From positions 1 to 59,299 of the forward strand of contig LBPF01000004.1 in the NCBI GenBank assembly GCA_000990005.1: DNA of 59,299 bases. Reading direction: 5' to 3'. This DNA is from Candidatus Woesebacteria bacterium GW2011_GWB1_33_38. GTDB lineage: Bacteria > Patescibacteriota > Microgenomatia > UBA8517. Position numbers and translations under genes: made by a program. Below are positions 7,784-59,198 of the stretch, piece by piece; positions within the stretch are counted from its first letter, which is position 1, and each line of letters begins with the position of its first letter. A model generated the notes under the pieces. That model saw only the letters and a list, made by a program, of their open reading frames with translations. It was not told where the DNA came from and did no database searches.

Positions 7784-7867
7784 GGAGGAGTCGGATAGTG
7801 GTTCATTCCACAGACTTGGAAAGTCTGCGGCTTAACAGCCTCGCGAGTTCGAATCTCGCCTCCTCCG
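7784..7867 (+). tRNA. tRNA-Ser(GGA)
   Basis: GGAGGAG acceptor, anticodon loop TTGGAAA, long variable arm, GCGAGTTCGAATCTCGC T-arm, CTCCTCC G. Confidence 0.85.
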
Positions 7868-9361
7868 CTTTGCAAATAATGAGCGTGTCGCAAAATATGG
7901 CGAGTTTTGCGCACGCTCGGAACAGGCCGTATTGTAGCCCAGTTTGTAATCTGTTTGGAGCGAATTACCTTCTAAAATGAAGTTCGAGCCGACACTTTTT
8001 GCAAAAGAGCGAAGCTCTTCTGCAACTACATTTTTTGCCGCGATTTTTCTAGCCTGAAAGGCTCGCAACATGAAGTTTTCGAAAGGTTCGAGCCAAAGTC
8101 CACCCTTTTCTTTTAGAACAGCGATTTTCTCTGCGATTTTTTGTTTTTCCTCAAAAATCTCATTCTTCTTTAGTTTATAAACTTCGGGGTCAATATCTCC
8201 TGAAATATAACCGTCGGTTAATCTACTAACTTTAAGGTCTTGTAATTTTATTTCGTTTTCAAAATTGTGAGATTTTTGAGAGACAAGTTTTGTCTCTAGC
8301 TTTTTATCTTCCTCAAACCACTTTTTCCAATCACTTTGCCAAGAAGAAGGCAAGGCAACTGCCGAAATTATCCTTTTAATCTCACTTTTGAGATTATCTT
8401 CAGAAATATACTTTTGACTGCACTTACCTAACTTTTTAGTACAACGATAGTAGGTATAGTCAGCACACCTATCAGTACCTTTGTAATATTTATGATGAAT
8501 TTCGGCAGTTATTGCAGCTCCACATTCCGCGCATCTGGCCAGTCCTGTAAAGGCAAACCTGTGTCCATCAGTTCTAGGTTTTTCTATCTTTTTGATTTCA
8601 GATTGAACAGAGTCAAACAATTCTTTGGGTATAAAACACTTATGCGTTCCTTTATACCACTCACCTTTATAGAAAAACTGACCCATATAGAATTTGTTAG
8701 TTAAAGTTCTTCTAATCCTTGTTAAGTCTAAAGGTTTGCCTTTACCTCCAAAAACTTTATTCGAAGCAAGGTATCTTGATATTTTCACAAAAGACTTTTC
8801 ATTTAAGAATAGGGTAAAACAGTTACTCACCAATTTAGATAGCTTTTTATCAATTACTATGTTGTGAGTAACTGGGTGATTTTTATACCCAAATGGAGCT
8901 TTTAGAGGCCAGATGCCCAAGCGCAATTTTTGCCTAATACCTCTTTTTACATTTTCACTTAAATTATCTACATAATATTTTCCTTGGGAAAAGGCGATTG
9001 AAAGCATGAATTTACCTTGTGGGGTATTATCAAACCAAAAAGTGGGGAATTTTAAATCAACTATTTTCCCAATATCTAAAAAGTAGATAATTTTGCCTCC
9101 GTCAACTGAATTTCTAGCAAGTCTATCGGCGTGCCATGACAAAATTGCGTTTGCCTTGCCTTCTTCAATGCTTTTAAGCATTGAATTAAACTTTTCTCTT
9201 CCAGGTTCTTTGGCAGTTTTTGACTCTGTAATAATTTCAGTTACAAAAAGGTTATTGCTCTTGGCAAATTCCTTTAGTTCTGCAACTTGTGACTCAATAG
9301 ACAAAACTTGCTTTGTGGCTTCGTCAGTTGACTTACGGCAGTAGATTATGTATTTGTCCAT
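7832..9361 (-). CDS. large serine recombinase (resolvase catalytic domain + recombinase domain + zinc ribbon)
   Basis: N-terminus YCRKSTDE..SIESQ carries the catalytic Ser region. CxxC...C cluster (ARCAECGAAITAE...YYRCTKK) and a coiled-coil tail. The ORF runs through IR1 into antisense tRNA-Ser(GGA). Confidence 0.85.
   Translation of the reverse strand: MDKYIIYCRKSTDEATKQVLSIESQVAELKEFAKSNNLFVTEIITESKTAKEPGREKFNSMLKSIEEGKANAILSWHADRLARNSVDGGKIIYFLDIGKIVDLKFPTFWFDNTPQGKFMLSIAFSQGKYYVDNLSENVKRGIRQKLRLGIWPLKAPFGYKNHPVTHNIVIDKKLSKLVSNCFTLFLNEKSFVKISRYLASNKVFGGKGKPLDLTRIRRTLTNKFYMGQFFYKGEWYKGTHKCFIPKELFDSVQSEIKKIEKPRTDGHRFAFTGLARCAECGAAITAEIHHKYYKGTDRCADYTYYRCTKKLGKCSQKYISEDNLKSEIKRIISAVALPSSWQSDWKKWFEEDKKLETKLVSQKSHNFENEIKLQDLKVSRLTDGYISGDIDPEVYKLKKNEIFEEKQKIAEKIAVLKEKGGLWLEPFENFMLRAFQARKIAAKNVVAEELRSFAKSVGSNFILEGNSLQTDYKLGYNTACSERAQNSPYFATRSLFAKRRRRDSNSRGC
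7865..7964. repeat. IR1 left copy (100 bp)
   Basis: Reverse complement of 9434..9533 with a single mismatch (7957). Contains an imperfect dyad, 7881-7895/7905-7918. Confidence 0.9.
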
Positions 9362-9389
9362 ACTTTAGTCCTCTCAAGGCAAGGCCTTG

Positions 9390-9418
9390 AAAAACATTTT
9401 GCATTTTTTTATATTTTC
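9390..9418. repeat. IR3 left copy (29 bp)
   Basis: GAAAAACATTTTGCATTTTTTTATATTTTC is the reverse complement of 9650..9678. Confidence 0.8.
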
Positions 9419-9433
9419 TTTCTTTTTAGTTGT

Positions 9434-9533
9434 TTCGCTCAAAACAGATTACAAACTGGGCTACAATACGGCCTGTTCCGAGCGTGCGCAAAACTCGCCA
9501 TATTTTGCGACACGCTCATTATTTGCAAAGCGG
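9434..9533. repeat. IR1 right copy (100 bp, inverted)
   Basis: Checked base by base against 7865..7964. Confidence 0.9.
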
Positions 9534-9604
9534 GCGTTATACAAAAAAATTCGAACTCAATTTCAAACTCAATGACTCGGACCGCTCCGGCTCGGCCTTT
9601 GGCC
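9530..9604. repeat. IR2 left copy (75 bp)
   Basis: Perfect reverse complement of 10830..10904. Weaker similarity continues about 15 bp further (CCTTCCGCGTA versus CCTCCGCGTA). Confidence 0.9.
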
Positions 9605-9649
9605 GAAGCCTTCCGCGTAAAGTGTCGGCTCGAACATCGCCGTTAGGCG

Positions 9650-9678
9650 AGAAAATATAAAAAAATGCAAAATGTTTT
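9650..9678. repeat. IR3 right copy (29 bp)
   Basis: GAAAATATAAAAAAATGCAAAATGTTTTT, inverted copy of 9390..9418. Confidence 0.8.
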
Positions 9679-9767
9679 TAACGTTCTAGTGTTCTTCTTT
9701 AAATTTATTCCATGTAAATAATTTTTCAATAGCCAAATTTAAACCAAAACTGTCTTTGTAGCTATTA

Positions 9768-10760
9768 TTGTCTTTTTTTGCTAGAATTCACGCAATTATG
9801 ACGATTGAGATAACATTGCCAATAAATACTGATACAGAACCGAAAACTGTTGGCAGATTGGCAAACATATTAAACAATTTCAGGCAAGCAAATAAATTTG
9901 GTGGCACAAGTTATGGATTTTTTTATCTAACAAACGAATGTAACTATGCTTGTGACATGTGTTATATGGATTCAAAGCCAGGACTTAAAAATACTCGATT
10001 AAATCCAGAACTTTCAAAAGGAATAATGCGTGAATTTCAAGGAATTGATGAAATTATAATTTCAGGTGGTGAGATAACGATACTTCCGTATTTTGTTGAA
10101 CAAATACAAACTGCAGCTGAAGTTGCTGGTTTTGTAACTGTCTTTACAAACGGAACAGGTTTTGTTGATAGATCGGTTCTAAGACAAACTGAAGATAATT
10201 TTGAAGCAATCCGAGACGCTGTAAAGTTAGGTATGGAAGAAAAGCTACAAAATATACCATCAAATGTTGAGATCACTATTCCAGCAACTGCATATCATCT
10301 AGTCTCGGATTCGGCTCATAAAGCACATAAATACCATGAAGCGATTGTTACAGCCAGTGCAACTTTGGCTCGAGAATGGTTTGATAGGAATGATAGACCA
10401 AAAATTAGATTTATTGCTAAAAATACCCCAGGACAGCCAAATTCAGGACAAGAAATTATTGATCGCTTTGGAATACAAGGTTTAGGGTCAACAGGTGCCG
10501 CTTTTCCTGGGGGTATTTCCAAAAACGGCAGAGGGGCATCAATTATGGAAGCAAGAAACCCATCTGAGGTTATATCTAAAATCGAGGGAGGTATTCACAT
10601 AAATCATCAAGGCGTTTTTGCCAATGAGCCGTCTTTGCTTCAAAAACTACATTTAAATAATGTTACTCCAGGAGAAATTTGTTCAATAGAATCAAGTACA
10701 TCTGTTGAAGAAGTCGTAAATTCGGTCGCGAGTTTTGTTGAAAGAGTCAGAGAAACTTAA
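9768..10760 (+). CDS. radical SAM domain protein (function unknown); start may be ATG 9798
   Basis: CNYACDMCY (CX3CX2C cluster) followed by the IIISGGEITILP SAM-binding-like motif. Confidence 0.65.
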   Translation: MSFFARIHAIMTIEITLPINTDTEPKTVGRLANILNNFRQANKFGGTSYGFFYLTNECNYACDMCYMDSKPGLKNTRLNPELSKGIMREFQGIDEIIISGGEITILPYFVEQIQTAAEVAGFVTVFTNGTGFVDRSVLRQTEDNFEAIRDAVKLGMEEKLQNIPSNVEITIPATAYHLVSDSAHKAHKYHEAIVTASATLAREWFDRNDRPKIRFIAKNTPGQPNSGQEIIDRFGIQGLGSTGAAFPGGISKNGRGASIMEARNPSEVISKIEGGIHINHQGVFANEPSLLQKLHLNNVTPGEICSIESSTSVEEVVNSVASFVERVRET

Positions 10761-10775
10761 TTTTAAGTGTCTCTG

Positions 10776-10792
10776 GTCGAGCTGTGCTCGAC
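10776..10792 (+). terminator. hairpin downstream of the radical SAM gene
   Basis: GTCGAGC-TGT-GCTCGAC followed by TTTAAAAA. The T-run is weak. Confidence 0.35.
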
Positions 10793-10829
10793 TTTAAAAA
10801 TCGCGTTCAAAAAATGTACGCGGAGGCGA

Positions 10830-10904
10830 GGCCAAAGGCCGAGCCGGAGCGGTCCGAGTCATTGAGTTTGAAATTGAGTTCGAATTTTTTTGTATAACGC
10901 CCGC
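10830..10904. repeat. IR2 right copy (75 bp)
   Basis: Perfect inverted copy of 9530..9604. It ends 1 nt before the ATG of the EEP gene. Confidence 0.9.
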
Positions 10905-11639
10905 ATGAAAATAATATTTTTAAATTGTTGGCAAGGAAAAGTTTGGGATAATCTATCTACTTTTTTGAAGAAACAAGAAAAAGACACAGACACCTTTTGC
11001 TTTGTTGAGGTTTCTCCAAAATTACATTCCAAATTCTCTGATTTATTGATCGGATTTAATGGTGTCTATGAATCAGAAAAACTAAAAGGATTGGATGGAA
11101 TTGAATATGGACAGTCTGTTTTTGTTCGAACAGGATTTGATATTCAAGAAAGTAAGAAAATATCATTATATAAAAATCTATCCAACGACATTGGATTTAT
11201 GCAAGTTGTAGATATTCAAATTAATGACAAGAGTTTGTTGATTGCAAATATTCATGGGATGTCAAATCCTGGGGATAAACTAGATACACTTTTTCGTCTC
11301 AAACAATCAAAAATAATTATTAAACATTTCATTCAAAAATTAAAAAGACCAATAATAATTACCGGCGACTTTAATCTGTTACCTGATACCAAATCTATAA
11401 AACTTTTTGAAAAAGCAGATTACAGGAATTTAATAAAAGAATTTAAAATAAAATCGACAAGAAACAAAATTGCTTGGCAACATTTTAAAAATGACCCAAA
11501 TTTTGTAAAGCAATACTATGCAGATTATTGTTTTGTTTCAAAAGACATAAAAGTAAAAAATTTTACTGTTCCGGACATTGAAATTTCCGACCACCTGCCA
11601 CTAATTTTGGAGTTTGAGATTCACCCCCACACCAATTAA
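10905..11639 (+). CDS. endonuclease/exonuclease/phosphatase (EEP) family protein
   Basis: MKIIFLNCWQG N-terminus and C-terminal ISDHLPLILEF motif. Start taken at ATG 10905. Confidence 0.65.
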   Translation: MKIIFLNCWQGKVWDNLSTFLKKQEKDTDTFCFVEVSPKLHSKFSDLLIGFNGVYESEKLKGLDGIEYGQSVFVRTGFDIQESKKISLYKNLSNDIGFMQVVDIQINDKSLLIANIHGMSNPGDKLDTLFRLKQSKIIIKHFIQKLKRPIIITGDFNLLPDTKSIKLFEKADYRNLIKEFKIKSTRNKIAWQHFKNDPNFVKQYYADYCFVSKDIKVKNFTVPDIEISDHLPLILEFEIHPHTN

Positions 11640-58029: not shown

Positions 58030-58100
58030 GGGTGTGTCGTTCATCGGTAGGACGGTACTCTTATAAAGTATCAAGGATGGTTCGACTCCATCCACACCCA
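58030..58100 (+). tRNA. tRNA-Ile(UAU)
   Basis: GGGTGTG acceptor, D stem GTTC/GGAC, anticodon stem GTACT/AGTAT, loop CTTATAA, T-arm GATGGTTCGACTCCATC. Confidence 0.75.
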
Positions 58101-59198
58101 CAGAAATGGATTTTCCGGCGAGTCGGGAATGGCGCTCGCCGCGCCCGCCCCCGTGGCGAGCGCTGCAAAGCCCAGTTTATATACGCAAAAAAGCCGCCGA
58201 TTAGAAACAAGGTAGTCCGAGCCGACTTTTTTGGCGAAGAATGATAATTCTTCGCCATTATGTTTCGCGCGCGCGATTTTGGCCGCATCAGCGGCCACTT
58301 CTACAAATTCCCTCATTAGTCCGAGCCATTCACTTCCGTTTTTGGAAACACTTGCCATTTTCTCCTTCAATCTGATTTTTAGTTCCATTAATTCGTTTTT
58401 CTTTTGTTGATAGACTTGGGGATCAACTATCTGGTCGAGATAGCCTTCAAGTAACCGATCAAGTTTTTTGTCTATTTCTTGAACTTCGGAAGAAAATTTT
58501 GTAACTTGATTTTCACTATTTGTTTTTTCTTCCGTTTCCTCTTTATCAAGTCTTTCTATCCACAGTTTAGTCCACGAAGTGGGCAGGCTGGCTTTTTCAA
58601 CAATTGCTCGCAATTGTTGCTCTAAAAGTTCTTCCCGCAGATAATTTTGTGAACAATCGGTTTTCTTTTTGGTACAGCGATAGTAGATGTAATCCACATT
58701 TCCCCTCGTTGTTGGATAGCATTTGTGTTTGACTTCGGCGGTGATGGCACAGCCACATTTAGCGCACTTGGCCAATCCCAGAAAAGCAAAGTTGTGCTTT
58801 TTGTTTTTAGGATGTTCTCTTGCCTCGAGAATTTTCTGAATTTTTCCAAACAACTCTGGGGGAATAAACAGTTTATGAGTCCCTTCGTAGGTTTCACCTC
58901 CGAAGTTGATTATGCCAACGTAAAACTTGTTGCTTATAATCCTCTTTACCGTATCAAGGTGAAGCATTTTACCGTTGTATCTGGTAATGCCAAACTTTTG
59001 AAAAAATCGAGAAATGTTAGCAATAGAGCTTTCGCCTTCGGCGAAAAGCTCAAATGCTTTTTTGACGATTTTTGATTTTACCGGATCAATTTCGATTGTT
59101 CGTAATCTCGGCTCGTTGAAATATCCGTACGGCGCTTTATTAGGTAAAATTCCTTTTCGCAGTTTTTGCCGATTGCCTCGTTTTACATTTTCGGACAA
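58071..59198 (-). pseudogene. 5'-truncated large serine recombinase (lacks catalytic domain)
   Basis: Homologous to residues ~134-end of 7832..9361 (LSENVKRGNRQKL..., CAKCGCAITAE, YYRCTKK). An in-frame TAA lies just upstream of the homology. The 3' end runs antisense into tRNA-Ile. Confidence 0.7.

Follow-up and report, generated by a model that had tools for sequence, protein, structure and literature searches.

A serine integrase gene that appears to span its own attachment site and to exchange its C-terminus upon integration at a tRNA gene

The contig LBPF01000004.1 of Candidatus Woesebacteria bacterium GW2011_GWB1_33_38 (genome 845 kb, 33% GC, 14 contigs), the whole 59.3 kb (59,299 nt) of which is the window analyzed here, carries rec1, a gene that converges on a tRNA-Ser(GGA) gene and encodes a large serine recombinase (LSR, or serine integrase). 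The sequence points to rec1 as the integrase of a 3,036-bp element (7869-10904) at the 3' end of this tRNA gene. Sequence and comparison show that the integrase gene spans the attachment site of its own element (attP) and that integration swaps a conserved and selected C-terminal tail for another one; we propose that the integrated enzyme is thereby attenuated or re-specified while the gene can still be rebuilt. Taken as a whole, we consider this best explanation of the locus to be probable.

Two predicted C-termini for one recombinase

What does the rec1 protein end in? As read in the assembled contig, the open reading frame (ORF) crosses a CCGC core, its last 37 nt lie in antisense tRNA-Ser(GGA), and the protein ends ...SLFAKRRRRDSNSRGC. 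A second reading is supplied by an internal copy, the ORF 9387..9575(+), which ends ...SLFAKRALYKKIRTQFQTQ and gives SLFAKR/ALYKKIRTQFQTQ (the slash marks the crossover). The first-pass annotation of this DNA had claimed that the recombinase tail is encoded across the attachment junction and antisense to the tRNA, which the ORF itself, the 37-nt overlap with the ARAGORN tRNA call and the empty sites in relatives bear out; the two tails that it derived, ...SLFAKR/RRRDSNSRGC in the integrated state and the one carried by the internal ORF across a closed junction, both read as it said. The closed junction of that annotation is the attP configuration. In this configuration, that is, in an excised circle or when the rec module is read into the internal inverted attP, rec1 would encode 512 amino acids, the last of which (...FAKR/ALYKKIRTQFQTQ) form a conserved amphipathic helix. 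At the left attachment site (attL), in the integrated configuration, the second half of the terminal helix is swapped for RRRDSNSRGC from the antisense tRNA. The crossover (core GCGG, codons K498/R499) falls 13 codons 5' of the natural stop, and attP thus lies within the integrase gene. P0001, the closest relative in the database, matches rec1 at 92% identity through R499 and then carries a different motif-like tail, SQWYEFRTYH. Together these readings show that the conserved, selected C-terminus is present only when the P' and P arms of the site are joined, and that integration replaces it.

The limits of the element follow from empty sites. In four relatives tRNA-Ser(gga) adjoins the ATG of an endonuclease/exonuclease/phosphatase family (EEP) gene with a gap of 0-60 nt, and therefore 7869-10904 is an insertion flanked by CCGC; in a same-genus relative an extra ORF sits between the tRNA-Ser(gga) and EEP genes. 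The CCGC core of attL (7865-7868) recurs at 9530-9533 and at 10901-10904. Two inverted repeats account for the remaining architecture: I1 (7865-7964 / 9434-9533) is 100 nt long and 99% complementary, I2 (9530-9604 / 10830-10904) is 75 nt long and 100% complementary, and the two have the 4-nt GCGG/CCGC in common. We read attL as tRNA / CCGC / arm A, the right attachment site (attR) as arm B' / CCGC / ATG, and the internal site (A' GCGG B) as an inverted copy of the joined element ends, that is, as a putative attP. We rejected the alternative that each repeat-bounded module is a transposon with terminal inverted repeats, as arms A and B are mutually unrelated and jointly make up one attP-type site.

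Rec1 is an LSR by its domains: PF00239 (Resolvase, E = 5.8e-20) covers residues 5-147 and is followed by PF07508 (Recombinase, E = 8.7e-12) and PF13408 (Zn_ribbon_recom, E = 3e-9), with invariant Cys columns, and its residue S11 is the invariant serine column S24 in P0001 numbering. A coiled-coil is inserted in the zinc-ribbon domain (AlphaFold helices 339-386 and 392-419). That rec1 catalyzes attP x attB integration, attB being the bacterial partner site, is suggested by the precision of the insertion relative to the empty sites. The closest solved protein is SPbeta SprA (profile E-value 4.5e-22), and model residues 1-479 align to SprA 11-537 (chains 9y66, 9dxh; Z 17-18); the model also aligns along its full length to Bxb1 and phiC31 chains. 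Because the alignment to SprA covers residues 1-479 only, the rec1 family has about 35 extra residues, comprising a variable linker and the terminal helix. With an alignment of locus translations trimmed at the crossover, to which ten motif-bearing proteins that are contiguous by nature were added, AlphaFold predicted a terminal helix of 21 residues (492-512 of P0113) with a local confidence score (pLDDT) of about 90, spanning the crossover between residues 499 and 500.

Constraint on the tail across the family

The layout of rec1 is that of its family. We examined 64 related loci in which the ORF is closed and a tRNA gene converges on it; in 61 of them the ORF ends at the 3' end of the antisense tRNA or past it, so that homologs do not, as a rule, close before the arm. 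Likewise, every one of the six LSR paralogs in this genome whose 3' end is present runs 31-151 nt into an antisense tRNA, each a different one. The overlap of rec1 with its tRNA is therefore not a matter of chance. A second set of loci, from the taxonomic family of the host, shows the same layout. An inverted repeat of 80-135 nt brackets the gene in nearly every related locus, and the inverted internal P' arm arrangement was found in about 60. By continuing the ORF into the upstream repeat copy, the attP-state C-terminus could be read in 57 loci, and in 54 of these it carries the conserved peptide Φ-Φ-(E/D/N)-(K/E)-(I/V)-R-T-x-(F/Y), which is exemplified by ALYKKIRTQFQTQ in rec1 and by EIYEKVRTEFRKG, CLFEKIRTDFAQNR and SVLNEIRTFFRENPDADF elsewhere; the tail is 11-18 residues long in 48 of the 54. 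The integrated-state tails range from 0 to 89 residues, are unconserved, and read the tRNA T-loop in differing frames (DSN vs L/I/F-EP). The motif terminates about 6% of the 120 best database homologs, nearly all others ending in antisense-tRNA sequence, and in one close subfamily the alignments end exactly at the crossover. The family is large, with >6,000 database proteins at E <= 1e-30. Within the taxonomic family of the host, 121 genomes were covered and 70 of them have members; no relative of >55% identity to rec1 was found in the 121.

The conserved tail evolves as coding sequence. We compared 17 independent nearest-neighbor pairs over ten tail codons (68 substitutions) and found a ratio of nonsynonymous to synonymous change (pN/pS) of 0.25 in the ORF frame vs 1.40 and 0.82 when the same DNA is read in the other two frames; the coding constraint across the junction that the first-pass annotation had suggested looking for is thus present. 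The bodies of the genes, as a control, give 0.36 in frame vs 0.90 and 1.35, and the 25 codons before the core, a variable linker region, give 0.68. Synonymous changes make up 36 of the 68 in the tail, where 22% is expected (p = 2e-8), and the entropy of the tail at codon positions 1, 2 and 3 is 0.99, 0.68 and 1.33, respectively. The five tail codons outside E-K-I-R-T have a pN/pS of 0.21. The tail Arg is kept through AGA, CGG and CGT variants, Thr is encoded by all four of its codons, and the hydrophobic positions -4, -3, 0 and +4 hold their character through different codons.

The same DNA bears the marks of a recombinase half-site. K-I-R-T is written AAA ATT CGA ACT and E-K-I-R-T is GAA AAA ATT CGA ACT, and the TTCGAAC within them is antisense T-loop sequence. 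This motif starts at nt 12 past the repeat boundary in the tRNA arm and at nt 17 in the P arm, an outward shift that is +5 in 32 of 48 loci and +4 in 7 of 48; in LSRs the motif bound by the zinc-ribbon domain lies 5 bp further out in attP than in attB (PMC3783163). The tail DNA is thus both a P-arm half-site, with a T-loop mimic at the zinc-ribbon-motif offset, and a coding tail, and it is therefore doubly constrained, as DNA and as protein. On inspection by eye, the P and P' arms showed no clear dyad symmetry and the P' arm no T-loop mimic.

Table 1. Features of the element, its attachment sites and the second recombinase gene (window coordinates)
Feature	Coordinates	Strand	Description	Basis
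tRNA-Ser(gga)	7784..7868	+	Integration target; 3' end is the B-type arm of attL	ARAGORN; empty sites in relatives
rec1, integrated state, 509 aa	7832..9361	-	Residues 1-499 element-borne, 500-509 (RRRDSNSRGC) from antisense tRNA	ORF list, Pfam, P0001 alignment
Integrated-state tail	7832..7864	-	10 codons + stop, from antisense of tRNA acceptor + T arm
TTCGAA in tRNA arm	7848-7853		Starts nt 12 past core
attL core CCGC	7865..7868		Spans R499 codon + final base of K498 codon
P' arm (repeat arm A)	7865..7964	-	Last 33 element-borne rec1 codons: short conserved helix, then poorly conserved linker
Inverted internal P' arm copy (A')	9434..9533	+	Upstream of rec1 start
P arm (repeat arm B) of internal inverted attP	9530..9604	+	Inverted repeat I2
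Conserved tail 'exon', copy 1	9534..9575	+	ALYKKIRTQFQTQ + stop; within internal inverted attP
T-loop mimic TTCGAAC	9550-9556		Starts nt 17 past core; in tail exon copy 1
P arm at attR (B')	10830..10904	-	Inverted repeat I2; holds tail exon copy 2
Tail exon, copy 2	10859-10900	-	ORF 10859..11032(-) ends ...ALYKKIRTQFQTQ; excised circle would join this copy to rec1
attR core CCGC	10901..10904		Directly 5' of EEP gene ATG (10905)
rec2, second LSR gene, N-terminally truncated	58071..59198	-	Ends 31 nt inside antisense tRNA-Ile(tat) 58030-58101

The element has several features beyond those listed in Table 1. The internal copy lies in a 62-residue ORF (9387-9575), which begins with a hydrophobic stretch (MKNILHFFIFSFFLVVSL...) and continues through the duplicate of the last 33 codons into the conserved tail. 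Centered on the internal core is a perfect inverted repeat of 30 nt (9390-9419 / 9650-9679), and the recombinase codons SFAKSVGSNF recur at 9610-9638 in an 83% copy that contains a stop in frame. The EEP ORF as listed starts with TTG at 10890, within the element arm, but relatives place its true start at ATG 10905, right after the attR core. Elsewhere in the genome, a contig end (G000 C6:154531-154663) matches the reverse complement of window 10762-10895, that is, arm B' and its inner flank, at 78% and contains a GTTCGAAC motif; this probably marks one end of a further element, truncated where the contig stops.

The 845-kb genome holds seven LSR genes or fragments (C1:881-2377, C2:37160-38692, two on C4, C6:144720-146209, C13:18689-20233 and C13:30329-31594), and no two of the complete ones converge on the same tRNA (Gln, Glu, Ser, Ile, Ala, Pro). 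A nearly identical 3' arm is found in the C13 and C6 copies, which nevertheless adjoin different tRNAs. Rec2, also on the present contig, ends ...WVWMESNHP within antisense tRNA-Ile, in agreement with the first-pass annotation. At the other end of rec2 the homology is lost precisely at ...NLSENVKRG, near residue 130; this point is some 110 nt (36 codons) away from the end of the contig, and the sequence that precedes it is unrelated and contains a stop. In several relatives (L134 (G138:C11); P0003-P0007, P0016) open frames of 835-914 residues join a complete LSR, without a shift of frame, to a second one that starts ...SKYYIDNLSENVKRG. The rec2 break and the LSR-LSR fusions suggest a recurrent breakpoint or target inside LSR genes. 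Finally, downstream of tRNA-Ser(gga) in L015 (G014:C5), part of the 3' end of this gene is repeated (…GGGTTCGAGTCCC…CCTCCTCCGCC); tyrosine-integrase islands leave scars of this type, and this one is at the tRNA that rec1 also targets.

Mobility, proposed mechanism and rival explanations

Three LSR genes that are 99.8-99.9% identical (L044, L045, L046) lie at three different tRNA-Ser genes in three phyla: one in a Thermodesulfovibrio metagenome-assembled genome (MAG), one in a Patescibacteria MAG and one, L046 (NZ_QPJS01000004.1), in the cultured isolate Schleiferia thermophila DSM 21410. The stored tail, CLFEKIRTDFAQNR, is the same in all three, while in the integrated state one gene ends in RGRDSNPRWG, one in RVWDSNPRTTF and one has no tail. 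Near-identical LSRs at different tRNA-Ser genes argue that the family has been mobile recently; the identity across phyla reflects either very recent cross-phylum transfer or contamination of bins. Full-length and clipped genes both occur in nature, the clipped, tRNA-convergent state being far commoner. In L048 and L070 the gene reads directly into the P arm of a neighboring module and hence carries the motif tail. The modules are chained in L048 and L104, both on JBAZPT010000003.1, and in L070, the 3' arm of one recombinase abutting the P arm of the next module. Such chains are consistent with serial insertions at the same tRNA, after which the motif tail of the inner recombinase would derive from a P arm that is not its own. 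L088 is a flipped isomer, tRNA-Ala(+) / CCACCA / arm A / rec pointing away from the tRNA. A Hin/Gin-type switch has inverted repeats around a segment that occurs in both orientations; at the rec1 locus the repeats are present, and L088 is the one flipped isomer among about 60 loci. Rec1 differs from a Hin/Gin-type invertase in that it has the 509-residue LSR architecture and is not a small protein with a C-terminal helix-turn-helix, and in that its gene lies inside the repeat-bounded segment. Contig breaks at repeat arms were rejected as evidence for inversion, since 100-nt repeats break short-read assemblies anyway.

We propose that the integrated form of the enzyme is probably C-terminally crippled or re-specified. 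The altered enzyme would then either stabilize the insertion or recombine different pairs of sites. Three routes could restore the full gene: the element could excise, the rec module could invert between the 100-bp repeats, or a later insertion could supply another P arm. The stored copies of the tail, one on each strand (9534-9575, and 10859-10900 on the minus strand), would permit the first two routes.

Several observations weigh against this proposal. In most loci the ORF of the integrated form is intact, and the altered enzyme may therefore retain its function. The Arg of the motif is CGA in 45 of 54 loci (83%) vs 25% CGA in the bodies of the same genes, and the conserved Trp before the core is TGG, which is simply the antisense of CCA; part of the amino-acid conservation of the tail is therefore forced by the DNA site. 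The sampled loci are mutually related, and the pN/pS estimate comes from 68 substitutions. With an alignment that retains the unconserved tails, AlphaFold gives the tail a pLDDT of <50 beyond the last folded helix, and the confident terminal helix obtained with the trimmed alignment depends on only ten motif-bearing sequences.

Could the overlap be neutral? In a compact element that places attP at the end of a gene, the ORF might run on to a chance stop, and the conservation would then belong to the DNA half-site only, that is, to an A-tract and a T-loop mimic. The codon bias of the motif Arg, the antisense-CCA Trp and the low pLDDT obtained with the unfiltered alignment all fit this explanation, as does the appearance of E-K-I-R-T as an A-tract plus TTCGAAC at the expected position of the zinc-ribbon-domain motif. 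A site conserved as DNA alone, however, does not account for the dependence of pN/pS on frame, which extends to the flanking codons outside the DNA motif, nor for hydrophobic positions preserved with differing codons, nor for the tight hold on the position of the stop (11-18 codons). Moreover, in the group at Pro-tRNA genes the shift is 4 bp instead of 5 bp, and V-R-T is still in frame with its Arg written AGA. We therefore disfavor neutrality on the strength of the frame control and regard it as unlikely, while for E-K-I-R-T itself the constraint may act on the DNA only. A different possibility is that the tRNA-encoded tail is the selected, functional form and makes the integrated enzyme, for instance, an excisionase or invertase. 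In favor of it, the integrated-form ORFs are nearly always open and of full length, and D-S-N or (L/I/F)-E-P recurs in many tails because T-loops are conserved. The difference between tails in the frame in which the T-loop is read (DSN vs LEP), integrated tails of anything from 0 to 89 residues, and the near-identical enzymes that carry two different tails or none speak against it, and we judge it improbable. The least probable account, to which we give very little credence, is that the nested repeats and the read-through are an artefact of a misassembled metagenome bin or the relic of a decaying, immobile gene. The assembly is indeed in 14 contigs, several related contigs end at repeat arms, and rec2 is truncated at the contig end. 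Nevertheless, the layout occurs in about 60 independent assemblies, including complete chromosomes and cultured S. thermophila DSM 21410, the empty site in relatives is precise, and copies of 99.9% identity are found in three phyla.

The proposed exchange of tails could go further and act as a built-in switch of activity or directionality, in place of a recombination directionality factor (RDF). Competence for attP x attB would be confined to the full-length enzyme, which has the terminal helix. Insertion through the rec-proximal attP would remove this helix and fix the element in place, and either excision or an inversion that brings the rec module onto the spare internal attP would arm the enzyme again. 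We offer this more tentatively, as a possibility that is on balance doubtful. If it were true, one stretch of 40 bp would do three things: encode the terminal helix of the enzyme, provide the half-site to which that enzyme binds, and imitate the T-loop of the tRNA.

Relation to known integrases and significance

The first-pass annotation had compared rec1 to the SSV-type integrases. The comparison holds in that the site lies within the integrase ORF, but the closer parallel is IntP/IntX of phage Mx8, where the C-terminus is swapped, and not SSV, where the gene is split near the N-terminus. The swap in Mx8 replaces a much longer C-terminal stretch than that of rec1. In Mx8, attP is inside the integrase coding sequence, and integration, also beside tRNA genes, yields a recombinant gene whose 3' end is new, and the integrase that results is not dead but has changed properties (PMC6070905; PMC4383910). 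Rec1 resembles this system in that the crossover falls within the integrase ORF, here at codons 498-499 of 512 with a conserved tail beyond; it differs in that the Mx8 integrase is a tyrosine recombinase and has no internal inverted copy of attP, while rec1 is an LSR. The 'suicidal' SSV-type integrases of archaeal viruses and plasmids have the recombination site in the integrase ORF, and integration disrupts the integrase's own gene (PMC7253208; PMC4383910). These are also tyrosine recombinases, whose gene is split into two separated parts, whereas rec1 exchanges its last 13 codons only and its ORF stays open. By analogy, the rec1 element appears to work like the attP-spanning integrases of the Mx8 and SSV type without being one of them, as its domains are those of a serine recombinase. 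In the integration-dependent immunity of mycobacteriophages, attP similarly lies in the 3' end of a gene and the integrated and free products differ in C-terminus and in stability or activity; there, however, the affected gene is a repressor and the integrase is a tyrosine recombinase. In the literature searched, the attP-spanning layout was described earlier only for tyrosine integrases, and we found no published account of an LSR gene that spans attP, nor of the rec1 family.

Among serine integrases, the canonical phage enzymes (LI/A118, Bxb1, phiC31) have genes that lie beside attP and are not known to cross it, and their targets are protein-coding genes, where those of the rec1 family are tRNA genes. 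They share with the rec1 family short att sites in which the zinc-ribbon-domain motif is 5 bp further out in attP (PMC3783163). Serine integrases have been stated not to be known to target tRNA genes (PMC4383910). A minority of tycheposons carry LSRs. SprA has the same domain order as rec1; its gene does not span attP, and the extra ~35 residues of the rec1 family have no sequence counterpart in it. The SPbeta RDF binds SprA at DBD2 and the coiled-coil hinge. According to PMC11722253 (citing Abe et al. 2021), the extreme C-terminus of SprA (F532) sits against the RDF and is reported to control directionality; next to Mx8 IntP/IntX, this C-terminal element is the nearest analogue of the rec1 tail.

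Finally, serine integrases are prized as genome-engineering tools because they are strictly one-directional, and how direction is set and reversed is an active structural question. The rec1 family adds to the very few serine integrases known at tRNA genes, its attP arm mimics the tRNA T-loop at the 5-bp offset that the structural model predicts, and the isolate S. thermophila DSM 21410 offers an experimental handle on it. In this very large natural family, integration itself rewrites the conserved C-terminal helix of the enzyme. If the two forms differ in activity, this would couple the behavior of a recombinase to its integration state without any additional factor.

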